41,484 nucleotides of DNA from a virus (IMGVR_UViG_3300026541_000016:1-41484), one strand, 5' to 3'; numbered from the stretch's first letter, positions 4,095 through 41,484 are shown. A program made the numbers and translations. Notes: a model not told the origin generated them from the sequence alone.

Positions 4095-4376
4095 CTATGA
4101 AATATCTACATCAAAAACAAGCATCTTCTCTTCGCCAAAAGTATAACATTTAACGCTTTTTATATCCTGAAATTGAAATTCCCACATTGCGAAAAGTGGG
4201 ATATCATCTGGATAATTCTGTAAGCATTTTTTCATATCGCCTACTAACATTCTTCGACCACACCCTAAATACATTAAGTTAGGTCTTATTGCATCCGGTG
4301 GCGACTTATCCGTTGTTGGCGCTATTGATTCTATTACCTTTCCCAATAAAATGCTGGGCCGTTGATTTGCTTTCAT
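4095..4376 (-). CDS. Hypothetical protein
   Basis: ATGA overlap with the csrA stop codon. Confidence 0.6.
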
Positions 4377-4546
4377 TCTTTTCCCTCATTCAATATTTTT
4401 TTATAAATCTCCTCTCTATGGACAGGGATCTTTTTGGGTGCATCAATACCAATGCGCACCTGATTACCATCGACATGTAAAATTTTAACCACCACATCAT
4501 CGCCTATCATTAGCGCCTCTCCGGCACGTCTAGTCAGTATTAACAT
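4373..4546 (-). CDS. csrA: Carbon storage regulator CsrA/RsmA, 57 aa (absent from the ORF track)
   Basis: Hand translation [57 protein letters not shown]; R44 conserved; SD AAGGAG. Confidence 0.95.
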
Positions 4547-4563: not shown

Positions 4564-4643
4564 GTGCCAGTCTATTCGGCAAACTCCCACCGGCTAGGAG
4601 CTCGTATCAACATCCCAGAAGAGATGTCCCTTGCCTTATTTCT
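4564..4643 (-). ncRNA. Putative structured RNA, copy L (three-way junction plus pseudoknot), leader of csrA
   Basis: Homologous to 17124-17204 with stem-preserving substitutions. Confidence 0.7.
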
Positions 4644-4645
4644 TT

Positions 4646-4879
4646 TTAGGTGCTCTCAGCCGGACCCTCATATTCATTAAAGACAATATCTTCGGTTATA
4701 TAGATCTTATCTATTTCTTCTTTATCTTCTAAAGATATTTCTACAGGTATCATCCCAAAATGTCTTAATCTTAAAACCTTTCCATCTGTGGCACACCAAA
4801 TCGTTAAGTTTTTAAATATCAAACTTATATATTTCCACTCAATATCATCATCATCTACCATTTTATTATTCATTTTCAT
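4646..4879 (-). CDS. Hypothetical acidic protein
   Basis: ORF with SD, overlapping the upstream RHH gene. Confidence 0.55.
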   Translation of the reverse strand: MKMNNKMVDDDDIEWKYISLIFKNLTIWCATDGKVLRLRHFGMIPVEISLEDKEEIDKIYITEDIVFNEYEGPAEST

Positions 4880-5042
4880 TTCTCCTTTTTGACCTCGAAA
4901 ACGGACTATTTAAAGCTAGTTCTACTATTTTTATTCTGCACCAATCTGATAAACTACGATTATCAGCCGCCGCAAAATTCTGAAGTAACTTTTTTTCCTC
5001 TTCCGTTACTTTTATATGGATTGATTCAGTTCTACGTTCCAT
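4866..5042 (-). CDS. Ribbon-helix-helix DNA-binding protein
   Basis: RTESIHIKVTEEEKKLLQNFAAADNRSLSDWCR fits the RHH pattern; likely start ATG 5042. Confidence 0.75.
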   Translation of the reverse strand: MERRTESIHIKVTEEEKKLLQNFAAADNRSLSDWCRIKIVELALNSPFSRSKRRNENE

Positions 5043-5068
5043 ATCACTATAATAGCATAGTATCACAT

Positions 5069-5096
5069 ATTATATAATACTTTGTAGTTCTATCAA
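5069..5096 (-). promoter_or_regulatory. Putative sigma70 promoter of the RHH-csrA operon
   Basis: TTGATA-N16-TATAAT on the minus strand. Confidence 0.45.
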
Positions 5097-5100
5097 TCAG

Positions 5101-5326
5101 TGTCTAATATCCTGTCTAATCTAATTATAAGTTGTTGATTTTATTGACACTCGAATTTATAAAGTATTAGACAATAATTGCTTAAGTGTATGATTATTAA
5201 CACAATCATTTCGGATTGTGATTCCGGCCGTCGTGGGTTCGAGTCCCATCGTTCACCCCATCTACAGCGGGTTTGCGGGTTAGCAGATACTAACCATTGT
5301 CTAAAATATTACGGATTGTCTAATAT
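5101..5326. mobile_element. attP: core plus integrase arm-type repeats and IHF sites
   Basis: TGTCTAA(T/A) at 5101, 5113, 5298, 5317 and inverted at 5165-5173; IHF consensus TAAGTTGTTGATT 5128-5140; near-match 5183-5195. Confidence 0.85.
5212..5260 (+). other. attP core: 3' half of tRNA-His(GUG)
   Basis: CGGATTGTGATTCCGG anticodon arm, GGTTCGAGTCC T-arm, CACCCCA end; no D-arm or 5' acceptor strand. Confidence 0.92.
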
Positions 5327-6289
5327 TTTTGGAGATATCGGCGTCACTTGAGTCGGTTTGCGGCGATAATGCCGCTCTCTAACCCTGGTGTCTTGGTGTC
5401 CTAAGATCTCGCCTGTTACGTGGTCTGAGCCTGTCTTACCACGGATATCCCTCCACTGATAACTTTCAATTCCTTTGTCCTTAACGGCCTTATCTATCAG
5501 CCTTCTCCATATTGACTGAAATCCGCTTGATGAGTACTTTTGTCCTTGCCGGGTACATATCAAATGAATACCGCTAATATCCCCTCTCAATGATTTAGCC
5601 TCTTGTACAAACTTTTCTAAAAGAGGTGTCCATTCAAATAGCAATACTTTGCCTGTTTTTTGCGATTTAACCATAAGCCCCTCATCTGTGCAGTCTTGGC
5701 GGCGAAGATCTAGGATGTCTCGTTGTCTGAGTCCTGTCACCAATGCTAGTCCCATGGCTATTTTCATAAACGGAGAGGCCAGGTTATACACAATCATAAA
5801 TTCCTCATCTGTGACATAGCGATCCCTTGGCTTTTCAGGATTGGCCTGGACAAGTCTGCAAGGGTTTGTCGTTGTCGCCCCCCATCGGATGGCCTTAGTA
5901 AAGACATGTGATAATAGGGATTTCTCACGATTCGCCCTCACAGGCGGTCTAGTGTCCATATAGGCGTATATATCTTGGGGTTCTATGTCATCAGGGGGCA
6001 TGTGGCCAAAGACGGATTTAAGCAAGCCAATCTCTATCAGGTTATCTAGCTGTGTCCGTGGGGCCTTAGTCGGGATTATGTCTGTCAGATAGCGATCCAT
6101 AATCTGCCCCATGGTAGTGAGGGGGAATGGTCGCGTGTTTAAATCAGCATATTTGATTAAAGCAACTTGGTAATCTTTGCCTAATGGATGCCAAACGCTT
6201 GTTTTATCAACAAAATAATAAGCGCTATGCTTAAAATACATCCTTGCCGGCAGGTCATGGCGGATTTTTCTTCTTCTCCCCATACTCAT
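5309..6289 (-). CDS. int: Tyrosine integrase
   Basis: TGLR, KTGK, RDIR (HxxR variant), LGH and HYRR motifs; adjacent to attP. Confidence 0.95.
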   Translation of the reverse strand: MSMGRRRKIRHDLPARMYFKHSAYYFVDKTSVWHPLGKDYQVALIKYADLNTRPFPLTTMGQIMDRYLTDIIPTKAPRTQLDNLIEIGLLKSVFGHMPPDDIEPQDIYAYMDTRPPVRANREKSLLSHVFTKAIRWGATTTNPCRLVQANPEKPRDRYVTDEEFMIVYNLASPFMKIAMGLALVTGLRQRDILDLRRQDCTDEGLMVKSQKTGKVLLFEWTPLLEKFVQEAKSLRGDISGIHLICTRQGQKYSSSGFQSIWRRLIDKAVKDKGIESYQWRDIRGKTGSDHVTGEILGHQDTRVRERHYRRKPTQVTPISPKILDNP

Positions 6290-6292
6290 AAT

Positions 6293-6499
6293 CTATTCCT
6301 TTTTTCGGATAGCGTCTAGATTCGGCATGGTTTTCTGGCGTGTTTTTTCGTTTTCAAAGACACAGCGCGGGACTCTTGGATATCCATCAGCGGCGACAAA
6401 GAAGCGGATACCGTATGTCTTTAGCTGTTTAATCATCTTACTTGGCCACTGATAGCCGGTAAGCTCTGTTAATTCTTCGTTATTAAGAAAGAGAGTCAT
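6293..6499 (-). CDS. Excisionase-like protein (DUF4224-like)
   Basis: FL...EL.ELTGY......L...GI.F....DG.P.V pattern immediately upstream of int. Confidence 0.8.
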   Translation of the reverse strand: MTLFLNNEELTELTGYQWPSKMIKQLKTYGIRFFVAADGYPRVPRCVFENEKTRQKTMPNLDAIRKKE

Positions 6500-6514
6500 A
6501 GGGCTTCTTGTCGA

Positions 6515-6706
6515 TTAAGGGATTTCATTATCCATTACGCTATTAAAGGCGAGCACCATCGCTCGAATACATTTATCATTATCTTGTAACCATTGCCCCC
6601 ATTCTTGCTTGCATTTAGGGCAAAGTTCACCATTACCGGGAGCTGTATGGCCAGTCATTATATAAAATGCCTCTGCTTTAACTTTATAGATGTCATTCTT
6701 GTTCAT
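6515..6706 (-). CDS. Hypothetical protein
   Basis: ORF in the leftward operon; likely start MNKNDIY after GGAGGG. Confidence 0.5.
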   Translation of the reverse strand: MNKNDIYKVKAEAFYIMTGHTAPGNGELCPKCKQEWGQWLQDNDKCIRAMVLAFNSVMDNEIP

Positions 6707-6763
6707 CAAACCCTCCCAACGCACACACCTGCTGTGCGGCAAAGAGTCTTTGTTCAGGCGTTG

Positions 6764-7156
6764 TCATAGATACACTAATGATTCTAGTTGCTCAATAACC
6801 GCCAGGACTTCTTTGGTACGACCTTCACGTATCAAAACTATAGGTTTTTCATTATTTAGAAGCTTATGGGGCAAGAAAAGCCATTGCTGAATTTCGTCTG
6901 GCGTGTAGAAAGCTGCTAATCTATTTTTAACCTCATCTATTTCTCTTAGCTTACGACAATTGTTTTTAAATTTCCTATCAAGAAACCAAATGCGGGTTTG
7001 CGCTATATTCTCTATCCAGGCATACACATTCTGTATAGGGCGCATAATATCTGTTTGGTAAGTGAGATAAACAGATACCCAAAAAGGGTGTTCATGGCTA
7101 TACCTCCACCATTTCCAACTAGTAATTATCCAATAGCGTCTTTGTTCAGTCATCAA
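6764..7156 (-). CDS. Protein with C-terminal Xre/MbcA/ParS antitoxin-like domain
   Basis: WLFLPHKLLNNEKPIVLIREGRTKEVLAVIEQLESLVY matches the WL..P...L....P..LI..G....V pattern. Confidence 0.7.
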   Translation of the reverse strand: MMTEQRRYWIITSWKWWRYSHEHPFWVSVYLTYQTDIMRPIQNVYAWIENIAQTRIWFLDRKFKNNCRKLREIDEVKNRLAAFYTPDEIQQWLFLPHKLLNNEKPIVLIREGRTKEVLAVIEQLESLVYL

Positions 7157-7340
7157 TGCTTACTCAACTATAGTATTAGAAAATATATAGATTAATGAAA
7201 GCGAAATTGCTGCAAAAACTATTGAAAGATAATAAATTGTAGCTATTACAATTCCTATTAATAATGTAACTAATATGAACATAGCTTGCCAAAGAGTAAT
7301 TAAAAAATCTATCGTATGCATGTAGTAGGTTTTAGGCACG

Positions 7341-7745
7341 TCAAAGCCCCTGAACATCTTCGCGTGGAAACCCCACCGCTCTAATAGATGTATCCCCAGC
7401 GGATAGCTGGTCGTAGCAACGCTGGGTACACAAGTACACAAAATCCTCGGATTCTTCCCATACCAGCCGGTCGAGTATCTTCCCACCGAATGCTACAACA
7501 CTAACGGATTTTCCACGGTTTTCTTTAGTGTAAGCCAAGATAGGGCCGCGAGAGACGATTGGCACACCTGTACCGTCGAACTCACCGCTCTCCCTGAAAA
7601 AATAATACTCAATACCATCAACTGTTATTGTTGAGTACCTTGGGGAGAGGGTGAGGGAGATTGTATTGCCTGTTTCGCTATCCCTATATAGGAATGGCTG
7701 TATTACGGCTATGTTGTGTTTGATAGAGAAATCACTGAAGTTCAT
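7341..7745 (-). CDS. Hypothetical protein
   Basis: ORF with SD, coupled to the upstream gene. Confidence 0.55.
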   Translation of the reverse strand: MNFSDFSIKHNIAVIQPFLYRDSETGNTISLTLSPRYSTITVDGIEYYFFRESGEFDGTGVPIVSRGPILAYTKENRGKSVSVVAFGGKILDRLVWEESEDFVYLCTQRCYDQLSAGDTSIRAVGFPREDVQGL

Positions 7746-7888
7746 TTTTTATCCTTCCTCTCTATATACTCGTCATAATGTTTATCACAAAAATATTTGG
7801 TGATCGGCATCTCTATCGGCGGCGATGTTTGACCCACTGTTACTTCATGTGTAAAGTCTTCGTCACATTCTTCACATACAGGGTGCAT
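7742..7888 (-). CDS. 48 aa Cys/His protein (absent from the ORF track)
   Basis: MHPVCEECDE...YFCDKH; stop-start overlaps at both ends. Confidence 0.55.
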   Translation of the reverse strand: MHPVCEECDEDFTHEVTVGQTSPPIEMPITKYFCDKHYDEYIERKDKK

Positions 7889-8139
7889 TATTTATCCTTC
7901 CTCTTTAAGCTGGCTCTTAACATGCGCCAGGGGATTTTGAAATTAATATGTACTTCGCCGTAATCGTCCTCATGGTCATAATATATATGTATTCCATATG
8001 CTTCTTCGTAATACCATGCATTGGAATTTATCTGTTTAGGCTCTAAGCTCAAATGTTTTTTAGCCATCATCAATCTCTCCATTGCACCTGGGACATAACA
8101 ATGCTTTATGTGCATCGTCTTCGCCTGCCGTGTAAGCAC
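7888..8139 (-). CDS. Hypothetical protein (true start probably near 8070)
   Basis: Operon packing. Confidence 0.5.
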   Translation of the reverse strand: MLTRQAKTMHIKHCYVPGAMERLMMAKKHLSLEPKQINSNAWYYEEAYGIHIYYDHEDDYGEVHINFKIPWRMLRASLKRKDK

Positions 8140-8239
8140 CCCCTTCTACGGGTATCACGTCCACTTTGCAGTGAGAGCATTGGACGGGCTTTTTAGATAA
8201 TCCAAACATATCCCAAAATTTAAAGCGGTTGATGGACAT
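8060..8239 (-). CDS. Small zinc-ribbon protein
   Basis: CSHC...CPRC; TAATG coupling with the exonuclease. Confidence 0.55.
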   Translation of the reverse strand: MSINRFKFWDMFGLSKKPVQCSHCKVDVIPVEGGAYTAGEDDAHKALLCPRCNGEIDDG

Positions 8240-8862
8240 TATGCGGCCTCTTTCCTGTTGATTAATATATCGCTTTGTTTGTCGAGATCTCTGCAAAATC
8301 TTATCAGCGCCAGTCTTAGTGTTTCTAGATCCTCCTCTACATCTTTCGCATACGTCCTAACAACGAATTTGTCCATATCCGGGTCATAACTTATAAAGTC
8401 CCACCAGTCACGGCCTGTGACTAACAATGACCCAAGCACCTGTAATCTGTGTTTTGTTGGCAGTTTATTCGCGAGCTGGTATCCAACATGCACGCCAGGT
8501 GATGGACATTTTATCTCGGTTCCGCCGTCCTCATTAATTAACGAATCAGGGCTACATCCATAGCGCTTGGAATCGTGCAAACAGAATCCGACTTGCTGAG
8601 GGTTACAGTCGTATTTAAAACCATACCAGTCACGCGCTTCCTCCTCAACTTCGTGACCTCTTTTCATCCAATCTGATTGGAACCCATCGTCCGGTTTTCT
8701 TCTAATTTGTTCTGCTAATAATTTATTACGGTATGTCGTTGCAGACTTTGAATAGTCTAATTTTGCCGGTGTGATAATATAGTCGAAGTTCGACGCTGAC
8801 GGAATTCCAAGCTTGGCATTCCACCATTCATCTGTGCCTTGGATACAATCAACTATCAACAC
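8239..8862 (-). CDS. YqaJ/lambda-exonuclease family protein
   Basis: QGTDEW...LG..SAS, RG.E.E..AR, GCSPD, EIKCP motifs. Confidence 0.93.
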   Translation of the reverse strand: MLIVDCIQGTDEWWNAKLGIPSASNFDYIITPAKLDYSKSATTYRNKLLAEQIRRKPDDGFQSDWMKRGHEVEEEARDWYGFKYDCNPQQVGFCLHDSKRYGCSPDSLINEDGGTEIKCPSPGVHVGYQLANKLPTKHRLQVLGSLLVTGRDWWDFISYDPDMDKFVVRTYAKDVEEDLETLRLALIRFCRDLDKQSDILINRKEAA

Positions 8863-9632
8863 TTTCTTTTGCCCTCAAGCTCTTTGACTGCGCGGTCGTA
8901 CTTAAAGATTGGCAGGTCTTCTAGTTTTCCAATTTTCAAGAATTTTAGGAATCCTTCCTTATTGACCCTTTCTCCTAACTCATCAAGCAAGGCAGCAAGG
9001 TTAGCGGCTTGGTCTTTCGTTATCGTTGGCACAGGGGGGTTGCCATCATTATCGGTATCGGCAGAGGATAATCCAAGCGCTGAAATTAGTGTGTATCTTT
9101 GTAAATACGTAACTGTGGAGCCTCTTGCCTGAATTGGATTTTTGCTACCTGTATCATCTATCCCGCCAGGCAGATAGGTGCGCTCACTATGCCCATTAAC
9201 GTGCGTTACAATACAAGTAATTTTAATTAAATTATCTAATTCCTCCTGCTCCCACCGGAACGACAATCCGCATTGTTTTAGCGACGACTTTATTTGGGAT
9301 ATAATACTAGGAAGCGTGGCGTACCAATATTCTGTTGTTCCTTTGCTTGTTTGGTAGCTAACTTTTTTTGTTTTTTTAAGCTCAGGACAAATAGACTGGA
9401 ATTCTGTCAATGCCTCAAAAAAAGCTGACTTTGCTTGCTTTGCCTCCCATCGCTCTTGTAGTTCCATTAAGCGTTCCAACTTTTCAATATCCAGATCTTT
9501 GGATATTGCGAGGGCCAATAGTTGCGCAGGCGTTTGTGTCGCAGGTAAAAAAGTAGTATCCAACTCACTCGCTTGAGGGTCAGGCAGTGTGATTGGTAAC
9601 CCAGATTGTTCACTCATTTCCTTTCTCCACAT
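8856..9632 (-). CDS. erf: ERF family single-strand annealing protein
   Basis: YATL, HVNGH, QARGSTVTYLQRYTL..ALGL...DNDG; probable start MSEQ at 9617. Confidence 0.92.
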   Translation of the reverse strand: MWRKEMSEQSGLPITLPDPQASELDTTFLPATQTPAQLLALAISKDLDIEKLERLMELQERWEAKQAKSAFFEALTEFQSICPELKKTKKVSYQTSKGTTEYWYATLPSIISQIKSSLKQCGLSFRWEQEELDNLIKITCIVTHVNGHSERTYLPGGIDDTGSKNPIQARGSTVTYLQRYTLISALGLSSADTDNDGNPPVPTITKDQAANLAALLDELGERVNKEGFLKFLKIGKLEDLPIFKYDRAVKELEGKRKC

Positions 9633-10178
9633 CTTCAGTTGCTTGCTCTCCCGCCAAAAACATCATTCGAATGTACAGTTGACGGCCAAGTTCAGTAAAA
9701 TCTTCAGTTCTAAATGCCTTGACAAAGTTTTCTTTATAGTCCCACGGTTCAAAATCCATCACGTTATCGTGAATCAATGTAACAGGATCGGCTAATAATT
9801 CAGCCACTCGCTGTTCGATATCAGCTTGATACTTGTCACATTCAATATCATGTTCCTCTTGCTCCCGGAGGTGATTGGGTGTTGCCATGGGTTTATTCAT
9901 GATTGTTTCCTGTTTCTTTAGTATGCATGGTCATTTTTCCGTCTATGCTGAATAGGCTCATAAGTGATCATTTGTTTTACAGCAAACACACATGGACATT
10001 CTGGACATGAGATGTGCCCAATTGCATCACCGTTATCATGAATATGCAAAACTAATATTTCATCCATATCTGATTGACGAATTCTATGATCACAGTTAGG
10101 ACAGTTCATAGCCGTTATCGTTAAGCACTCTTTCAATGAGTCTAGCCGCATGGGTATACGCATAAATTTTCCCGGCAT
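9610..10178 (-). CDS. Two small hypothetical genes (9610-9900; zinc ribbon within 9918-10178)
   Basis: Packed ORFs; CPNC...CPEC in the second. Confidence 0.5.
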
Positions 10179-10258
10179 AATTATCCCATCGGAACGCCTT
10201 GAGATCCTCCCAACTTTCTGCTTCTTCCAGCATTAAGTTATACAAATCTGCCAGTCTA

Positions 10259-10489
10259 TTAGCTTCTGCTTGGTTCATATCTAATGTTCCATTTTTGGAT
10301 AGCAATCTTTTTTCTTTTTTCAATTTCATGGACAGCATAATCTTCAACTAAGATAGAAGCGCCACAAAAACAACGCACACCAATTTTGTCGGATGATTCA
10401 CCATGCCCCACAATCTTTCTGTCTCCATGAAATAATTTCGGCTTCGCTCCGCAAAACGGACAAGGCAATAATTCATCTGTATCGTTCAT
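10259..10489 (-). CDS. Lar-family restriction alleviation-like protein
   Basis: LLPCPFCG...V.C.CG.....AI..WN.R. Confidence 0.75.
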   Translation of the reverse strand: MNDTDELLPCPFCGAKPKLFHGDRKIVGHGESSDKIGVRCFCGASILVEDYAVHEIEKRKKIAIQKWNIRYEPSRS

Positions 10490-11508
10490 TTCTTTGGATC
10501 TCCTTTTGCTTCATTCAACATATCAGCCAAGCTTCTTTCAATCTGATATCGCAATGCAGGCAATCTGCCTATTTTAATCAGTTCACGTGTTAGGCAATTG
10601 GGGCGTCTAGGTTCTGGCCTGCGTCGTTCGGGGAAGGGAATGACTTTATTCATTGCTATCTTCCTTAGAAACGTGTTCGTTTTTATCTAATTGGCTTCGT
10701 TCAAATGCTCTTAACATTTCATCTGCTGACACATCGTCCATTCCACGATCTAAACCTGCTGCGCAAATACAAGGGATACAGTTTTTCTGGATACCGCTAT
10801 AACGCTCATACCCTAAATGTCCATTGCGGTTCACTGCAATGTGCCAAATCAATTCTAGTGCCGCACGCATTTTGCGTTCAGATTCAGTCATTTCACACAC
10901 TTCGGGCATTTCACTTCGTTGATAACGCGCCAGCCTTTTTCGCGTGCCATTTTTGCTAAAATGGCTCCTAACTCATGGTCATAGCGATTTTTTACAGAGA
11001 GACTGTTCCCGCACTTGCACTCAAGTACTCTGACAGCTTCCGACATCTCTTCCAATTGTTGTTCAACTCCCATCCTTCAATTCCTCTGGATCGTCTTTAC
11101 CGTAGAGGGCGGTACGAAGGTCATCCCACATATGGTTGTTTTGCCATGCATAAGCTCTATCTTTATACAACGCCTTAGCGGCTTGTTCTATTTGTTCAAG
11201 ATGGTTTACATACTCGTCACGGGCATCCCAGACATATGCACATGCTAGATAATCTAGTCGGTCTCCTGGGCTATCGACTGTTTTGAACCACTCTTCAAAT
11301 GGTTGTGGTTTCATGACTTCTTAATATTCCCTAAACTATTCTCTATAATCAGTACAAGCGCCTCCTTGCACACGCCGCCGTTATTGGATTCATCCGTAGG
11401 CTTCCCGCCTTTAAATTCAATACGCTGACATGGGTTATTAGAAATATCGCCTGCCTTAAAAATATCTTCTGCAATTTTTTCAGCAAGACTAAATGTTTGT
11501 GGTTTCAT
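10486..11508 (-). CDS. Five small hypothetical genes (10486-10653, 10646-10909, 10888-11073, 11063-11314, 11311-11508)
   Basis: Overlapping start/stop packing; 10888-11073 has CKC...CPKC. Confidence 0.55.
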
Positions 11509-11566
11509 ACCGTCACCGGCTCCTTAATTAACCGCTTATGGCTTGGCGGAGGTTCATGGGGTTATC

Positions 11567-11842
11567 TCATAACTTAGCTAAGGCATTAGCGGCGGCACCT
11601 AACCCATTGTCTCTGTCATATTTGCCTGGCCATAATTCATCACTATCAAGATCGATTTTCATCACCCTACCTTTTAAATAATCAAAATAGGTCTGTCCTT
11701 TGTCTAAAAATTCTTGTGCTTCTTCGATAGTCATGGGCTTAAGAGCATAGTGAAGATGCCCTAAACCTTGCGGCTTGGTATTGTTGTAGAGCGCTGCTAA
11801 TACTTCCGCTTTATTCATGTTTGAAATATTAATAGTTTCCAT
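11567..11842 (-). CDS. Phage protein of unknown function
   Basis: KAEVLAALYN...QG.G...FDYL.GRVMK.D...YDRDNG.GAA; strong SD. Confidence 0.7.
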   Translation of the reverse strand: METINISNMNKAEVLAALYNNTKPQGLGHLHYALKPMTIEEAQEFLDKGQTYFDYLKGRVMKIDLDSDELWPGKYDRDNGLGAAANALAKL

Positions 11843-11851
11843 ATCTCTCTC

Positions 11852-12067
11852 CTATAAGGTGGCTTTTAATCTTTCTAGCTCTTCTTGATATTGCTTGAGA
11901 ACTTGTTTCAACGGACGCTGCATGGCTCCCACTAATTGCTCTCCATCTTTCCATACAGCATATAAAGTTATACCTTCCATTGCCCCCTCCAAAAATCCAA
12001 TACGGTGCAGTAAATGTTCCCTGTCTGTTTTGTCAGTCCAAAAAGGGTCTCGTCCTATCCCGCTCAT
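11852..12067 (-). CDS. Hypothetical protein
   Basis: SD ATAGGAG. Confidence 0.6.
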   Translation of the reverse strand: MSGIGRDPFWTDKTDREHLLHRIGFLEGAMEGITLYAVWKDGEQLVGAMQRPLKQVLKQYQEELERLKATL

Positions 12068-12087
12068 CTCTTTCTCCTATAAAGGGC

Positions 12088-12197
12088 GGCTACAGGCCAG
12101 GCGTTACTCTGGCTACACGGTTGACATCTCAGAACCGTACCACTTTATTAGCGGGTGTCTATTAAGCCGAACATCCCGGCTCCACACCGCTGTAGCC
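12088..12197 (-). ncRNA. Putative multi-branched structured RNA (110 nt)
   Basis: Closing stem GGCUACAG/CUGUAGCC around GGUGU/ACACC (capped by GCCGGG/UUCGGC), ACGGUU/AACCGU and GCCAG/CUGGC. Confidence 0.6.
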
Positions 12198-12219
12198 ATA
12201 AAAGGGTGGCCGCTGGTTG

Positions 12220-12411
12220 CTATCCAATTGATTTACTGGCCGCAACAGCAGCAGCAGGGCCAACAGCGCTGCGTTTTTCTGCCATAATCTTTGAATAATA
12301 GTCGCCCGTGTCTCCCTGAAATAAAGGTTCGCCCACTGGGGCACCTCTCCACAGACTTAACAACTGTTCGTAGCTTGCGTTGTCGATCCAATCTTTTTGC
12401 GATTCATTCAT
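12220..12411 (-). CDS. Hypothetical protein, 63 aa
   Basis: Start MNESQ after AGGAGG; flanked by a 21 bp direct repeat. Confidence 0.65.
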   Translation of the reverse strand: MNESQKDWIDNASYEQLLSLWRGAPVGEPLFQGDTGDYYSKIMAEKRSAVGPAAAVAASKSIG

Positions 12412-12430
12412 TGAAATTCCTCCTATAGGG

Positions 12431-12495
12431 TGGCCGCTGGTTGCTATGGGTCGGAGAACAGCATTGCCCATAAACTGTAGTGCAACCAGCAGCCA
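12431..12495 (-). promoter_or_regulatory. Long bulged hairpin 5' of an RBS (RNase III-like site)
   Basis: 14 bp UGGCUGCUGGUUGC/GCAACCAGCGGCCA plus UAUGGG/CCCAUA. Confidence 0.55.
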
Positions 12496-12504
12496 TTGTG
12501 GTGT

Positions 12505-12627
12505 TCACTGGGGTGACTTCCTATTTTTTATGACCTCTTTAACTGCTTTTCTAATTTTCCACAGAGGAATGCTTCCTTTTTTAGCCGGGCGGCGTATTTT
12601 CCTTGTGGGGGGAGTTTTGGTGTTCAT
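12505..12627 (-). CDS. 40 aa basic peptide, first PL gene, apparently leaderless (absent from the ORF track)
   Basis: MNTKTPPTRKIRRPAKKGSIPLWKIRKAVKEVIKNRKSPQ; ATG starts 7 nt after the PL -10. Confidence 0.5.
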   Translation of the reverse strand: MNTKTPPTRKIRRPAKKGSIPLWKIRKAVKEVIKNRKSPQ

Positions 12628-12633
12628 GGGGAT

Positions 12634-12662
12634 AGTATGGGAAATAAAGTCCTATTTGTCAA
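12634..12662 (-). promoter_or_regulatory. PL promoter with operator
   Basis: TTGACA-N17-CATACT; operator ATAGGA-N7-TCCCAT at 12637-12655; degenerate copies extend to about 12700. Confidence 0.85.
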
Positions 12663-12735
12663 GAATTATTTTCCTATTTGGACGAAAATAAATCCCAATT
12701 ATGTGATAGGCGTCAAAGAATATATGGCGTGAGGG

Positions 12736-13107
12736 CTATTTAGAAGACTTCTCAGCCCGTTTAGCTAAAAGGGCTAATGCATATAACTCAATATGGTCTA
12801 TGTCCTCAGCAGACAAGTCGTTCATGATGAGGGCGATATCAATAGGGCGCTGCTTGAGTTTTTCCAACTCAGCGTGACCATAAAGTAAATAGGCCGGAGT
12901 TTGATCCAAAACCTTGGCCAAAATACTGATTCTCCGTGGTTGTTGTGTGAGTCCGTTTTCGATTTTTCGAATCGCGTCTACAGTATAGCCAGTTTTTTCA
13001 GCGAGATCTTCTCGGCTCATTTCTCCTCTTTGTCCGGACCCTGTTAAGGCTTTTCTGCATGATTTAACGCGCTGGCCTAGCCCCGTAAGTGATTGTTTTT
13101 TATCCAT
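12736..13107 (-). CDS. CI-like Xre HTH repressor lacking a peptidase domain
   Basis: MSREDLAEKTGYTVDAIRKIENG...LAKVL...PAYLLYG; lies between PL and PR. Confidence 0.88.
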   Translation of the reverse strand: MDKKQSLTGLGQRVKSCRKALTGSGQRGEMSREDLAEKTGYTVDAIRKIENGLTQQPRRISILAKVLDQTPAYLLYGHAELEKLKQRPIDIALIMNDLSAEDIDHIELYALALLAKRAEKSSK

Positions 13108-13183
13108 TGTCTTAATAAATTTAAGGGTTTAATCGTGGAAAATAGTATAGGTATTTTTTTTCTTGTTCAACGGAACAATTTTA

Positions 13184-13212
13184 TTGACAAATAGGATTAT
13201 ATTTCCCATAAT
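13184..13212 (+). promoter_or_regulatory. PR promoter with operator
   Basis: TTGACA-N17-CATAAT; same ATAGGA-N7-TCCCAT operator as PL. Confidence 0.85.
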
Positions 13213-13219
13213 ATACGTG

Positions 13220-13453
13220 ATGCGTAAGAATCGTAAATTTGCAGCAATCAACGCCATTAACGCGGCCGGCGGAGCCACTGTATTGGCTGGCGAACTCAAT
13301 GAGTTGCTTGACCCGGAAACCCCTATTAAAGCGACGCGGGTACAGAAATGGAAAGTCACTGGGATTCCTCCGCATTTTGTTATCCCTGTCGAAAAAATTA
13401 CGCAAGTGTCACGGCATAAACTTCATCCAGAGCTTTACCCGGACGCCGCATGA
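13220..13453 (+). CDS. Cro/YdaS-like regulator
   Basis: AI..AGG...LA......V.KW...GIP......EK...V....L.P.LY; start placed downstream of PR. Confidence 0.85.
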   Translation: MRKNRKFAAINAINAAGGATVLAGELNELLDPETPIKATRVQKWKVTGIPPHFVIPVEKITQVSRHKLHPELYPDAA

Positions 13454-13462
13454 TTCTATACC

Positions 13463-13541
13463 CCCATAGGCACCCCCCACGGGCCTATGGGTTTTGTCCT
13501 CGTCGCATCACACCCCCCAAGGTAGCGGCGAGGACCTTTTT
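13463..13541 (+). terminator. Two hairpins after cro; the second is a tR1-like intrinsic terminator
   Basis: CCCATAGGC/GCCTATGGG; GTCCTCGTCGC/GCGGCGAGGAC followed by a T run. Confidence 0.65.
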
Positions 13542-13665
13542 AATTCAAACAATTATCTAAGGTAAGACATACCTATGCACTCAGTTTTTTTACGTCTGGA
13601 TTATTTGCTCTTGTCTTCAATTGTTTTTTATCGGTTGCTCTTGTGTCCTCTTGGGTTGAATAAGA

Positions 13666-13938
13666 ATGAATGATTCAATCCACTCACGCCGTGTCAACTT
13701 AGATCTCAAACACAAAGATATTGCTGAGCGCATGAGTGAGTTTTTAGGCGAGAGAGTCAGTCATGAATCAGTCCAAAGTTATTTTAGTGGCAAAGGTGTC
13801 CCGATAGAAAAAATTCTCGCACTTCTTCATGCGCTGGAATGGAAACAAGTGGGTGTTGATGAAATCTGTTTGCCACTTGACAGACACCAAGCCCTTGTCT
13901 TGTTAGCCGCGGACGGGATAAATTCACATAAGCGATAG
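13666..13938 (+). CDS. CII-like HTH regulator
   Basis: HTH-like KHKDIAERMS...VS.ESV; position after cro. Confidence 0.6.
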   Translation: MNDSIHSRRVNLDLKHKDIAERMSEFLGERVSHESVQSYFSGKGVPIEKILALLHALEWKQVGVDEICLPLDRHQALVLLAADGINSHKR

Positions 13939-13948
13939 AGGCCAACAA

Positions 13949-14365
13949 ATGTTAGACATGATTCCAGAACAACATCGATATTCTGATTGTCCTCTCTGCT
14001 ATCAATCACTAAGTGACTGGCAACGAGATTTCGTTAAAGAAAAGGTGAACCGTATGAATCGACGAGAGAATGGACGTATTAAGTCATATCAACACTGTGG
14101 GCGGCTAGAGGCGTTTATTGCAGTCGCCCTAATCGGTCTGTTTGTCTGGATGGTAGTAAGTTCCCTGTGGATACTTATTGCCGTAATCTTGGCCATTTAT
14201 TTTGGTCTTCCCATGATTAAGGAGCAAAGCAAAATGAAAGATGTAATCTTAAGAATTACGGGTATCCGTATTATCAACATGAAGCTATCTGCATTGGCAG
14301 AATATTTAAAAATCCGCTTTATTCACGTTCCAGAACATTACAAATGCGAAGAAATTAACAAATGA
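13949..14365 (+). CDS. Hypothetical membrane protein
   Basis: Hydrophobic hairpin; CPLC. Confidence 0.5.
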   Translation: MLDMIPEQHRYSDCPLCYQSLSDWQRDFVKEKVNRMNRRENGRIKSYQHCGRLEAFIAVALIGLFVWMVVSSLWILIAVILAIYFGLPMIKEQSKMKDVILRITGIRIINMKLSALAEYLKIRFIHVPEHYKCEEINK

Positions 14366-14369
14366 TTAA

Positions 14370-14438
14370 TGGCTACAGGTTGTAATTTAGTATGTTCTTA
14401 TTATCGTCATATATTTTCATACGCATGACCTGTAGCCA
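14370..14438 (+). promoter_or_regulatory. Long bulged hairpin 5' of an RBS
   Basis: UGGCUACAGGUUGU/AUGACCUGUAGCCA plus GUAUG/CAUAC, then CCCCAUAGGAGG. Confidence 0.55.
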
Positions 14439-14458
14439 CCCCATAGGAGGGTAGAGGT

Positions 14459-14773
14459 ATGACTGACCTTGAACTCATCAAAAAGTGTGCGGATAGGATG
14501 GGGCTTGATGTGGTACTAGTATCACATAAGACGGATGACCATGGGAAGCAGGGTAGTTATGTCTCCCATGCCGGCGAATACGACCCCCTGCATGACGATG
14601 CCCAAGCCATGGAATTGGTGAAAAAGTTTAAGGTATGTCTAGTTTATGCTGAGGACGAAGAACATGAAATAGGGCCCATTTGGCAAGCAGATATTGACGA
14701 CGAAAAGTATTTAACCACATCAGATAATCTAAACCGCGCTATCTGTGAATGTGTCGCTAAATTAGAGAAATGA
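14459..14773 (+). CDS. NinX/DUF2591-like phage protein
   Basis: YDPL.DDAQAM.LV.K...NL.RAIC.C. Confidence 0.6.
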   Translation: MTDLELIKKCADRMGLDVVLVSHKTDDHGKQGSYVSHAGEYDPLHDDAQAMELVKKFKVCLVYAEDEEHEIGPIWQADIDDEKYLTTSDNLNRAICECVAKLEK

Positions 14774-15167
14774 AATACACCCTATTCCCTAACCGCGTCT
14801 GGGAGCCCACTGAAAACGGGTGGGCTTCACGGGAGGCGACAGCGAGTGACCAGAAACGTCGAGGTTATGTGGAAAAATTTATCATGGGAGAGATTGATAG
14901 TAAAACCATGAACGAGCAGATTAAGGAAATGGTGTAGTGGAATTATACGAGAAATGCAGATGTGGGGCTGAGTTTAAGATGGTTGATGAAGTTGGCCTGT
15001 ACATTGGCAATGGCGGTAAGCTAGACAGTAATGGCGATAAATACATCATTCAGCGCGAACTACGGATATTTCGCGAATTGCATAAGAATTGCCTTGAGCC
15101 TAATGAGCATACGATTACCGTTGGAGGGGTGAAATTTAAGAGGCCAGAAAGTGACGCCACAAGCTAA
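14770..15167 (+). CDS. Two small hypothetical genes (14770-14937; 14937-15167)
   Basis: ATGA and TAGTG couplings. Confidence 0.55.
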
Positions 15168-15220
15168 ATTAGAAAATGGCCATGGGTAGTGGAATTAGTA
15201 AAAGGCTGAATTTGTGAATA

Positions 15221-15973
15221 ATGACACCGGGTCCTCAATTAGAGAATGGGTATACAAGGATCGCAAATGAATTATTGGAAGAAGTTACTAAATTCGATTT
15301 TTCAAAGCGGGAACTAAAAATTGTATTAGCAGTGATAAGACTAACATATGGGTTTAACAAGAAATTTGATGACATGAGTTTATCGCAATTAGAGACGAGA
15401 ACAGGCATTAAACGCACCCATCTTTGTAATGCAATCAACAACTTAGTCTCAATGAGGGTGTTACTGAAACAGTCACACGTGTTACCAAAACAGTCACACG
15501 TGCATGGGCAAGTTATTGGTTTAAATAAGAAATATCAAGAATGGGAGGTGTGGCCAAAACGGTCACTGTTACCAAAACAGTCACAGAGGTGTGACCAAAA
15601 CGGTAATAAAGGTGTGACCAAAACGGTCAATACAAAAGACAAATATAAAAACAAATATAAAGACAGAGAGATACAGCCGGTAAAACCGGCCTTCCCCCCA
15701 TGTCCTTATCAAGCTATTGAAGACCTATACCACGAAAAGCTGCCAGAGCTAGCAGCAAACTCTGACCTTGATGGGATAAAAGTACAAATAAATGCTCGCT
15801 GGAAGAAAATTCCAGAATTGAGTTTGTGGGGGCAATATTTTAACAAAGTACGTGAAAGCCAATTTCTTATGGGGAATATATCTAGTTCTAACAGAAAACC
15901 CTTCAAGACAAGTTTGAGGTGGTTAGTTGATCGATCGAATTTTGCAAAAGTGTTGGAAGGGTATTATGAATAA
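15221..15973 (+). CDS. Lambda O-like replication initiator
   Basis: ENGYTRIANELLE, R.TYGFNKK.D, NK.Y.EW; internal iterons; C-terminal WL....NF.KVLEG.Y. Confidence 0.9.
   Translation: MTPGPQLENGYTRIANELLEEVTKFDFSKRELKIVLAVIRLTYGFNKKFDDMSLSQLETRTGIKRTHLCNAINNLVSMRVLLKQSHVLPKQSHVHGQVIGLNKKYQEWEVWPKRSLLPKQSQRCDQNGNKGVTKTVNTKDKYKNKYKDREIQPVKPAFPPCPYQAIEDLYHEKLPELAANSDLDGIKVQINARWKKIPELSLWGQYFNKVRESQFLMGNISSSNRKPFKTSLRWLVDRSNFAKVLEGYYE
15460..15665. repeat. Replication origin: six 17 bp palindromic iterons plus an A-rich tract
   Basis: GT(G/T)ACCAAAAC(A/G)GTCAC-like copies at 15460, 15481, 15550, 15568, 15591, 15614; then ACAAATATAAA twice. Confidence 0.88.
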
Positions 15974-16466
15974 ATGTCCTGAATGCAAAACCGTTTTGCT
16001 CCCTGGTACAAAAAAATGTACAGAATGCGGTTGGGATAAAGATAAAAATATTAACAAGTCGAATTCTTACCCGACCTTAAACGATTTCAAGCTGGTCCTT
16101 GAAAAGTTATTGGAAAATAGCAAAGCTGATTTCACTGCCGACTGGTTTTTAAAATTAATTCAACCTCCACAGCCTGAAGAAGCTCCAAGTACCGTAAAAG
16201 ACAATCGGTGGATCTGGCCATATGAAACTCGGGTAATTGTTTTATTCAAAACATACATGAACTGCGATGAAGAATTTAAACGTTTTATTATTGCTGCACG
16301 AGAAGACAACATTTACTGGAGAGGGGATGAACCGGAATTTTTCTATCGTGTAGTTAAGGAACACGAACGCATGATAGCAATGAGCGTAGAAAAATACCGG
16401 CAGGAAGCGCTTGGAAAAAAGAAACAGATAATAGATAAATTCAACGCAACAGGCACGGAGGGTTAA
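15966..16466 (+). CDS. Zinc-ribbon protein in the P/helicase-loader position
   Basis: CPEC...CTECG at the N-terminus; overlaps the end of the initiator gene. Confidence 0.55.
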   Translation: MNKCPECKTVLLPGTKKCTECGWDKDKNINKSNSYPTLNDFKLVLEKLLENSKADFTADWFLKLIQPPQPEEAPSTVKDNRWIWPYETRVIVLFKTYMNCDEEFKRFIIAAREDNIYWRGDEPEFFYRVVKEHERMIAMSVEKYRQEALGKKKQIIDKFNATGTEG

Positions 16467-16468
16467 CA

Positions 16469-17120
16469 ATGATTGAACAACGCTGGAAGCCAACCTATGG
16501 AGATATTTTACAAGCCGTTGCGCGAGGATGGTGCCATGAAACAACTTCTAAAAAAATAGTTGATCCAATCTTGGGTGAAGCTATAGCAAAGGAAATATGC
16601 AAGTTGATAGACATCCCTATGGCAGATGAAGATGAGTAAAGTAACAAAACTCCATGATAATTATTATGCAGCCTGTGAATGTAGAAGTATGACATTTCAT
16701 TTAAGAGTTGATGATATTGCAGACCGATGGAATACGATAATAGGGACAGAATGTGCCGAGTGCGGCCTTCAAAAAGAGTGGATACGTGTAGATAGGGTAG
16801 ATGAAGATGATTAACACAGAAAACTACACATTAGAGCCAAGTCATATACCGGAAAATCATAAAACTATTTATGATTCTTATGGATTTTGTCTTTACAAAA
16901 ATGACGGAGCGGGACCGCTTTATATTAGCCATGCAGGGCTAGACACGCTCTTGGATAAATATTTTAAGGAGCATTTTTGATGATTAACACAAAACTGAGA
17001 CGTATTTTAACGGTTGTTATAGTTTTAGGTGGCGGGATCGTAGTATACATATATTTGAAATACGTCTTAGAACCTTGGTTCATAACAACTATGTGTGAAC
17101 ATCTTGTTAAGTGCGATTAA
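16469..17120 (+). CDS. Four small genes (16469-16639, 16632-16814, 16807-16980, 16980-17120)
   Basis: Hand-translated coupled ORFs of 46-60 aa; the last has one TM segment. Confidence 0.6.
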
Positions 17121-17123
17121 CAC

Positions 17124-17204
17124 AGAAATAAGGCATGGTGCATTTCTTATGGAATTGCTCATTATCGCTCCTAGCCAGTGGGAGTATGCCGAATAGACTG
17201 GCAC
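17124..17204 (+). ncRNA. Putative structured RNA, copy R
   Basis: Homolog of 4564-4643; further hairpins continue to about 17308. Confidence 0.7.
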
Positions 17205-17311
17205 GAATTACCCGTTATTCGGGTAAAGGCAGAAGGCTATCTCCATGCCTAGGAACCGCTCTCGCTGGCCGGTGGCTGCTGAAAGGCCAGCATTAACTAG
17301 GAAGAGCGATT

Positions 17312-39969: not shown

Positions 39970-41484
39970 TGGCTACAGCACAAGAAAATTTACAGCGTTT
40001 CAGGGAGATTTCAAAGAGAAGATTGCAAGACCGTTTAGATCCTGATAAACGTGCTCGTTTTGATGAAGCCGTAGATAGAGGATTTATTTTTATTGATAGC
40101 GGACCTACCCGGCAATCGCAAGTCAGACGCGAGCCACAAATCAGACAAGATCCACAACAAAACATCCCACAACCTCCGCTACAAGACACCCCAGGAGAAA
40201 CCCGCGCAGCTCAAGAGCTTCCAGAGTTATTCACGTCTGGTTTGTTAAATGGGGAAGATCCTGGCCAGGTTGCAAAGTTTGCCGCCGTTGCTGCACTCTC
40301 GTTTGATCCTAAAGATATTGCAAAAATAGCCACTGAAATGTTTCCCAATATCGGCGTTCAACAAGACGAAGGTGGGAACTTCCTATTAGCCAATAACAAG
40401 ACAGGTGCCAGGGCTATTATTAATCGTCCGGGTATTTCAGGCACGGATGTGGCTCAGATTGCGGGATCTATTCCTGCATTTACGCCGGCAGGCATGGCGG
40501 CTGGTCTTGCGAAGAAAGCCACTACAAAAGCCTTAGCCGTGGGCGGGGCTTCTGGTTTAACCCAGGCAGGAATTGATATTGCACAACAAACCGCAGGTCG
40601 TGAAGAAGACGTTAGTATAAAAAACATCCGACCTTTAGATGTTGCCATTGCCACTGTGGGTGGGGCGGGCTTTGATGCGTTGTTTCGAGGATTAGGACGG
40701 TTTATTCCTGTATTTAGAGAATCGGTTAAGAAGAACAACGGACGTGTTACTGATGAAATCCGTAATACATTCAAGGAACATGCAGAGGAAGCAGGCATTA
40801 ACCCCGATGACGTGGGAGATGATTTTATCAAGTCTTTCATGGATTCAGTCGATGAGGCAGTAAATCCTCAGAGTCAAGTGGGTGAAGCAGCGGCTTTGCA
40901 AGGGGAGAAAGAATTCGGCATCAAGCTTACACGTGGGCAGCGTTCAGGCGAGCAAAAACAACTGAAATTTGAAGACAGGGCAAGATCTGGAGATTTTGGA
41001 GAGAAGCCTCAAAATGTTATTTTAAAAGGCGAAGCCGAACAAGCAAAACAAGCCCAGGAAGCAGGAAAAAACATCCAAGCTGGATTTGGTGAGGTCATTG
41101 AAAGTCAACAGCAAGCCGGTGGAATTGTAAAACAAGGCATACAAAATGCCGAATTGTTGGCTGATGATGTCGTAAAGGAAGCCTTTGAAAATATTGGTGA
41201 TGCCACGCTTAATGTGGACGGGGTTAAAAAATTAATGGTCTCGACAAAGAGAGCCATACAAGGGATAGAGTTTGATCCGTCGCTGGAGGGTACACAGAGG
41301 ATTCTAGTGCAGATCACAAAGTTTCAAAATACGCTTAATAAGTTAAGCGGGCAATTAAAGCCATTTCATATTAAGCGTATCAATAACATGCGTAAACGCA
41401 TGAGTAATGCTATCGGAACGGCTAAGGATTCAACTGACAGACGACAACTCATAAAGATGAAGGCCGGGTTTGATGAGTTTTTAG
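39969..41484 (+). CDS. DNA ejection protein (gp16-like), 5' part; continues across the join to 890 (absent from the ORF track)
   Basis: TGATG coupling; MATAQENLQRF...QDEGGN......N.PG.S..D......AFTPAG; 5' portion hand-translated and frame continuity checked arithmetically. Confidence 0.75.
   Translation, partial: MATAQENLQRFREISKRRLQDRLDPDKRARFDEAVDRGFIFIDSGPTRQSQVRREPQIRQDPQQNIPQPPLQDTPGETRAAQELPELFTSGLLNGEDPGQVAKFAAVAALSFDPKDIAKIATEMFPNIGVQQDEGGNFLLANNKTGARAIINRPGISGTDVAQIAGSIPAFTPAGMAAGLAKKATTKALAVGGASGLTQAGIDIAQQTAGREEDVSIKNIRPLDVAIATVGGAGFDALFRGLGRFIPVFRESVKKNNGRVTDEIRNTFKEHAEEAGINPDDVGDDFIKSFMDSVDEAVNPQSQVGEAAALQGEKEFGIKLTRGQRSGEQKQLKFEDRARSGDFGEKPQNVILKGEAEQAKQAQEAGKNIQAGFGEVIESQQQAGGIVKQGIQNAELLADDVVKEAFENIGDATLNVDGVKKLMVSTKRAIQGIEFDPSLEGTQRILVQITKFQNTLNKLSGQLKPFHIKRINNMRKRMSNAIGTAKDSTDRRQLIKMKAGFDEFL
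41368..41484. repeat. Terminal overlap identical to 1-117
   Basis: Exact match. Confidence 0.97.

Follow-up and report, generated by a model that had tools for sequence, protein, structure and literature searches.

The closest described relative of the RNA considered here is Methylophilales-1, which Rfam holds as RF03011 and types as a small RNA (sRNA), and which is reportedly attributed to Weinberg et al. 2017. Its model has a closing stem (P0), which joins the 5' and 3' ends, and a junction of three helices (P1, P2 and P3); in the printed model line P3 is drawn as a long hairpin and no pseudoknot is displayed, covariance models omitting pseudoknots. Here we describe a conserved RNA fold of 75–100 bases, in which a covarying pseudoknot locks a three-way junction in place and which is found as two copies (L and R) in a virus genome of 41,484 nucleotides (nt; IMGVR_UViG_3300026541_000016:1-41484, this whole stretch being referred to as the window). 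The fold is real and well supported, and the family to which the copies belong is, judged by sequence comparison, a much wider, pseudoknotted form of the orphan motif Methylophilales-1. No paper naming Methylophilales-1 was found, and the name is absent from the main text of PMC5737381, the supplement of which may report a pseudoknot for this motif or an assay of its cleavage. A search by title and the start of the abstract also found no paper describing the present RNA; its core words are absent from one supplement of PMC10085705 and from six supplementary files of PMC10690425, and the motif is not shown in the parts of these two papers that we consulted (papers are cited throughout for the parts consulted).

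Several other described RNAs invite comparison. Twister ribozymes have the same order of elements, bases conserved at the positions that correspond to L1 and L4 and a dispensable outer stem (the twister P1), but they have two pseudoknots, T1 and T2, and a conserved GC in L2, whereas the present RNA has one long pseudoknot and a different loop sequence (PMC5408937). The put RNAs of phage HK022 are likewise about 70–80 nt long and occur as two related copies on opposite strands of a temperate phage, but they consist of two stems plus a triplex near PL and PR, unlike the junction and pseudoknot seen here, which lie kilobases away (PMC9378689). GOLLD and ROOL are also found near transfer RNAs (tRNAs) and both in prophages and in non-prophage regions, but are large RNAs, whereas the present RNA is shorter than 110 nt (PMC5737381).

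The original prediction, made from the window sequence, had proposed two diverged copies of a structured RNA on opposite strands, and both were found where it placed them. They align by BLAST with 81% identity (E 2.8e-17, with copy R as the query), and the two mismatches claimed for the final 38 nt can be seen directly. P1 changes between the copies from GGCAA/UUGCC to GGCAU/AUGCC with pairing retained, and P2 is present as well. P3 and the pseudoknot made by its loop also proved to be there, but not with the limits proposed (CUCCUA/UGGGAG for P3). The U of CAGU pairs with the A of AYUG (U-A in 103/106 aligned sequences), and the pseudoknot is therefore 6 base pairs (bp) in the window copies and P3 is 4–5 bp.

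Since pairing had been used as a filter for the family of 143 sequences described below, a cleaner test of the fold was provided by alignment A3 (106 matches from 100 sources), for which the underlying model included P1 and P3 but left the pseudoknot out. The seven pseudoknot pairs are 92.3% paired in this alignment, compared with 23–53% in slid-register controls, and the three outer pairs show 24, 33 and 28 double changes. One pseudoknot pair is retained in 106/106 sequences with 24 double changes, and one is G-U in 69/106, which fixes the sense strand as had been predicted. P1 is 98.9% paired and P3 81% paired in a fixed register, and the highest scores for mutual information with average product correction were obtained for pairs in P3, the pseudoknot and P1. 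A lack of covariation among homologs had been named beforehand as a possible refutation; P1, P3 and the pseudoknot all covary. P2 reaches -3 kcal/mol or lower in 103/106 sequences and has no common sequence, while the optional closing stem P0 was found in 28/106 (4 expected), neither window copy being among the 28. It should be noted that single-sequence folding of the window copies does not choose this fold (z -0.70 and -1.65), and support for it comes from covariation and not from folding energy.

The family was assembled by pattern searches. The first pattern fixed the two ends only and returned 21 viral loci, of which 20 had the unconstrained P3 and a YAGUG loop. Versions relaxed in the 3' tail or in P1 returned 75 and 35 loci, many of which were chance matches, and 51 seeds were chosen by eye. 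Scanning genome contigs produced 31 loci (30 real by eye, with titles mostly naming Beta- and Gammaproteobacteria) and scanning metagenomes at least 119. A single descriptor applied to all loci matched 161 distinct sequences; the pairing filter dropped 18 and kept 143, including one likely false positive (L140) which was left out of most later counts. Relatives, which the original prediction suggested seeking in phage and metagenome data, are numerous: at least 143 distinct members were found, which fall into 121 flank clusters and come from phages, metagenomes, one plasmid and the Beta- and Gammaproteobacteria. BLAST of the members found no true match amongst annotated phages and one record amongst plasmids. 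Tandem copies are present at three loci (L169, L264 and L154).

The consensus reads AAUAAG-GCAN, the variable hairpin P2, a P3 of 4–5 bp with a loop ending in NNNCAGUG, P3', and then NN UGCC GA (A)UANA YUG NNN. The patterns imposed part of this invariance, though every block was relaxed once. The A preceding AUAAG is 99% conserved though it was never part of the descriptor, and with the middle of P1 left free GC/GC was retained in 39/45 matches, so the sequence is fixed beyond the needs of pairing. A further pattern with a relaxed P1 and a fixed AGCCRG added 11 loci, none of which had the fold. Around 25 bases are near-invariant, and these are concentrated in L3 and around the open end of P1 more than in the junction.

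Rfam returned nothing for the window at E 1 and only chance matches for either copy at E 10, with no match to RF03011 among them, so both copies fall below its gathering threshold. However, the full novelty that the original prediction entertained does not hold, as three Methylophilaceae relatives (L136, L138 and L157, among 20 loci) exceed the RF03011 gathering threshold of 79.9 bits. Phage members with P0 match RF03011 below the cut-off (4/20 loci), and a profile built from 73 members without P0 recovered 16/16 Methylophilaceae loci at E < 1e-3. The window copies are therefore distant relatives of Methylophilales-1 that lack P0 and are not formal members. The two share AAUAAGGCA, CAGUG and the UGCCGA-AUAGA-UUG core as well as the junction, but the present family has a wider range which includes phages, a plasmid and other Beta- and Gammaproteobacteria. 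The exact pattern was found as one copy in 71/201 genomes of the Methylobacillus family (Methylophilaceae), and the model matched 26/81. The motif is rare in the class: the model matched only the centre genome of a class-wide sample (1/151, with 28 candidates scored per genome), and the pattern matched 6/401, of which two were real by eye, one being the centre genome.

We then considered what the flanking sequences suggest about transcription. A -10-like TAnnnT lies 6–7 nt before the first A in 14/119 clusters (1.45 per background position, P 2e-6), and a -10-like hexamer is found 6–7 nt before P0 in 19/22 Methylophilaceae upstream regions. Terminators within 70 nt were identified by a strict criterion in 23/121 clusters compared with 9/330 controls, and by a loose criterion in 36/117 compared with 31/281; in 22 of these 36 the hairpin starts 0–7 nt past the pseudoknot. 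A tRNA or transfer-messenger RNA (tmRNA) occurs within 150 nt in 17/120 clusters, the 26 nearest all being on the same strand, and at several loci the motif sits 3–25 nt past a tRNA or 8–11 nt ahead of one. The neighbours include YqaJ, Erf and RecT recombination genes, and the long open reading frame (ORF) next to the motif is convergent in 11/22 Methylophilaceae loci. The downstream ORFs are unrelated: csrA follows in 1/113 cases, no family occurs more than twice, no candidate cognate protein family is common to more than 4/120 clusters, and ORFs led by a ribosome binding site (RBS) within 45 nt are not enriched (13/117 compared with 28/281 controls). These counts do not bear out the cis-regulator tied to nucleic-acid-binding genes that had been proposed, while the processed sRNA and the ribozyme also listed at that time are both still live.

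Our leading, if tentative, interpretation is that the RNA is a free trans-acting sRNA whose invariant core would bind and tie up a host protein. Many members would, we infer, be transcripts of their own, with a 5' promoter and a 3' terminator, or would be released from tRNA arrays. As the RNA is sometimes a whole transcript, is independent of its neighbours, and has an optional P0, a free side arm and some 25 nearly fixed bases, its own folded surface is most likely what it works with. The binding surface is predicted to form where the invariant strands AAUAA and GAAUA pack on the stack of P3 and the pseudoknot, and the partner is likely to be a core host protein because no gene travels with the RNA. 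CsrA-sequestering sRNAs carry several conserved GGA motifs in hairpin loops, whereas no conserved loop GGA was found in the family and the GGAG of P3 is paired. Type III antitoxin RNAs form a repeat array followed by a terminator and the cognate toxin gene; here no neighbouring protein family recurs and tandem copies are restricted to a few loci. Another set of motifs that we compared has ribozyme-like conservation, 3' terminators and few occurrences in 5' untranslated regions, as here, but three of these motifs travel with a nearby protein family and the present RNA does not.

A number of observations weigh against a free trans-acting RNA. No -10, terminator or RBS signal was found in 60/117 clusters, the co-occurrence of -10 boxes with terminators is not significant (P 0.28), and a consensus scan found neither a promoter nor a terminator belonging to either window copy. 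The sites between tRNAs, in tandem and beside recombination genes would also fit a self-cleaving ribozyme. We note that at the Methylobacillus locus the contigs of three runs (type unconfirmed) end at 2583–2585, just where the closing stem finishes, but one of these is a graph branch and none is recorded as RNA, and they were not used.

The second candidate is a self-cleaving ribozyme of a new class, similar to twister in its layout, which would probably cut within AAUAA, trim the transcripts of tRNA arrays and operons and leave a 5'-OH; we regard this as doubtful. The layout comprises an optional outer stem (the excess of P0 reported above), UAA 5' of the stem, GA after its 3' strand, an optional side hairpin, and a loop pairing with the 3' strand. 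In its favour are the size of 75–100 nt, the placing of the near-invariant bases described above, which recalls twister L1 and L4 (PMC5408937), the spacing from tRNAs and the recombination genes. However, Rfam gave no match to twister or any other ribozyme, there is no T2 pseudoknot and no conserved GC after P1, with only one pseudoknot covarying, and circular permutants numbered 0 among 6 pattern matches. Furthermore, there would be nothing to process in units consisting of promoter, RNA and terminator or in single-copy chromosomal genes with convergent neighbours, and 3' terminators have been argued to be at odds with self-cleavage for comparable motifs (PMC5737381). The fuller version of this proposal seems rather unlikely to the same degree: phages, plasmids and some Proteobacteria would employ a ribozyme built around one long pseudoknot for cutting early transcripts and tRNA arrays, and Methylophilales-1 would be its closed-stem form.

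An aptamer for a small molecule is unlikely, whether as a 'tug-of-war' riboswitch controlling the terminator beside it or as a free RNA that soaks up a signalling nucleotide. The 0–7 nt gap between pseudoknot and terminator matches tug-of-war spacing (bioRxiv 10.64898/2026.06.17.733018), and invariant bases at the hinge of P3 and the pseudoknot together with tandem copies are aptamer-like. Against this, the downstream genes have no common pathway and are often convergent, the RNA has no consistent 5' position relative to related genes, and the consensus scan gave no terminator for the window copies. The sole hairpin able to switch, an alternative UGCC/GGCA pairing preferred by energy in the window copies, is found in only 18/106 sequences, and a switch of this kind was rejected.

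Put-like antitermination and cis control of csrA fit least of the readings. It is improbable that the RNA acts like put, binding RNA polymerase so that termination is suppressed in the early operons of the phage. The two copies do belong to transcripts of opposite direction, one leftward and the other rightward, and many members are located at a 5' end shortly ahead of a terminator. However, HK022 put, which binds the beta' zinc-binding domain and antiterminates, adjoins PL and lies about 270 nt from PR (PMC9378689). Here the distances from the repressor region are about 8 kb and 3.5 kb, copy L is found past the integrase and is served by a different promoter, and chromosomal members often have no downstream operon. 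Least probable of all is a cis element for the next gene, either a leader bound by CsrA for autoregulation or a knot that stops nucleases and thereby stabilises the messenger RNA (mRNA) beyond it. In its favour, copy L ends 17 nt ahead of csrA and a few phage members end 20–30 nt before a start codon. Against it, csrA follows in 1/113 cases, RBS-led ORFs are not enriched, and within the GGAG of P3 the A takes part in pairing and is only 44% conserved.

The window is a complete circular record of a temperate, P22-like phage of 41 kb, as it has identical 117-nt ends (1-117 and 41368-41484). It carries P22-like portal, capsid and terminase genes, an integrase and excisionase, Erf and YqaJ recombination genes and an O-like initiator; the portal is no more than 43% identical to those of annotated phages. 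Sequence and model searches found no third copy of the RNA in the window, and no tRNA was found there. The positions of the two copies and nearby features are listed in Table 1.

Table 1. Coordinates of the two RNA copies, their structural elements and nearby features in the window.
Feature	Position	Strand	Remarks
Copy L, whole RNA	4564-4643	minus	Model score 59.5 bits (model seeded with copy L)
Copy L, invariant AAUAAG	4640-4635	minus	
Copy L, P1	4635-4631/4582-4578	minus	
Copy L, P2 hairpin	4628-4609	minus	
Copy L, P3	4600-4597/4587-4584	minus	
Copy L, pseudoknot	4594-4589/4571-4566	minus	
csrA	4373-4546	minus	Start 17 nt past copy L; own AAGGAG site; identity solid
Sigma-70-like promoter	5069-5096	minus	11/12 match; heads small operon beyond integrase
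Repressor gene	12736-13107		
Copy R, whole RNA	17124-17204	plus	Model score 60.8 bits (model seeded with copy R)
Copy R, P1	17132-17136/17186-17190	plus	
Copy R, P2	about 17140-17158	plus	
Copy R, P3	17168-17171/17181-17184	plus	
Copy R, pseudoknot	17174-17179/17197-17202	plus	
Extra predicted hairpins between copy R and ASCH-like gene	17205-17311	plus	Outside conserved family
ORF of 112 amino acids	17312-17650	plus	Weak ASCH match (Pfam E 0.006, below cut-off); 107 nt past copy R

The operon under the sigma-70-like promoter comprises an Arc-like gene, ORF 4646-4879, copy L, csrA and ORF 4095-4376, with copy L beginning 2 nt past the stop of ORF 4646-4879; its location beyond the integrase suggests that it is likely to be an accessory operon expressed from the prophage. 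Copy R sits in a 330-nt gene-free gap in a nin-like region after the replication genes. The copies in this phage are predicted to ride inside two mRNAs, that of copy L probably coming from the prophage and that of copy R from early lytic growth, and a trans-acting RNA would thus be made both in the lysogen and in early infection. The description of the neighbours as genes for nucleic-acid-binding proteins is sound for csrA, but the ASCH label is weak and the gene concerned is separated from copy R by two hairpins. We regard csrA as a neighbour of copy L and as a putative target only. A 53-codon ORF (17135-17296) across copy R was rejected as a gene, having no family match and a start that is not conserved.

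Other features of the window were noted in passing. A long hairpin is predicted upstream of copy R in the same gap (16995-17068, plus strand), and GATTAACACA occurs in three copies (16809, 16982 and 17115, plus strand) at the starts of small nin-region modules, the third directly before copy R; these repeats may mark a recombination or cassette boundary. Six iteron-like repeats of 19 nt (15459-15631) inside the O-like replication gene are likely to be the origin, and a 68-nt inverted repeat (12632-12699 and 13147-13214) flanks the repressor gene.

Elsewhere in the family, a tRNA, an extended -10 box, the motif and a terminator follow in order at L311 (3841-4480, plasmid pSTJ2) and similarly at L169 and L263, and after the terminator these three loci have repeated structured leaders, very small hydrophobic ORFs, and then nuclease and RecT genes; L263 also has a match to the DUF3085 RNA. 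Phage-borne permuted tmRNA genes adjoin the motif at L025 and L192, and adjoining phage tRNAs have uncommon anticodons at L116/L017, L083, L022 and L239 (Ala-CGC, Val-AAC, Ile-UAU and Leu-AAG). Two motif copies precede genes resembling the IteA/IteS anti-phage pair at L154 (290-486; below the cut-off), an integrase starts 112 nt past the motif at L136, and L177 (1028-909, minus strand) has a tandem repeat of about 60 nt made up of the motif's 3' part, either as an att-like duplication or as an assembly artefact. The UAA within AAUAA is the stop of the upstream ORF in nine clusters (L026, L008, L044, L144, L175, L180, L209, L213 and L223), which may be chance read-in.

These findings widen what was a narrow orphan motif to a family that numbers at least 143 distinct sequences and is common to bacterial chromosomes, phages and plasmids, and add to it a strongly covarying pseudoknot and a minimal core of 75 nt. 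Cultured hosts in which function could be tested cheaply are available in Methylobacillus flagellatus and Sulfuricystis multivorans (plasmid pSTJ2). Either of the two leading readings would be notable if true, as the RNA would be a phage-borne decoy for a host protein or else represent a new class of ribozyme.

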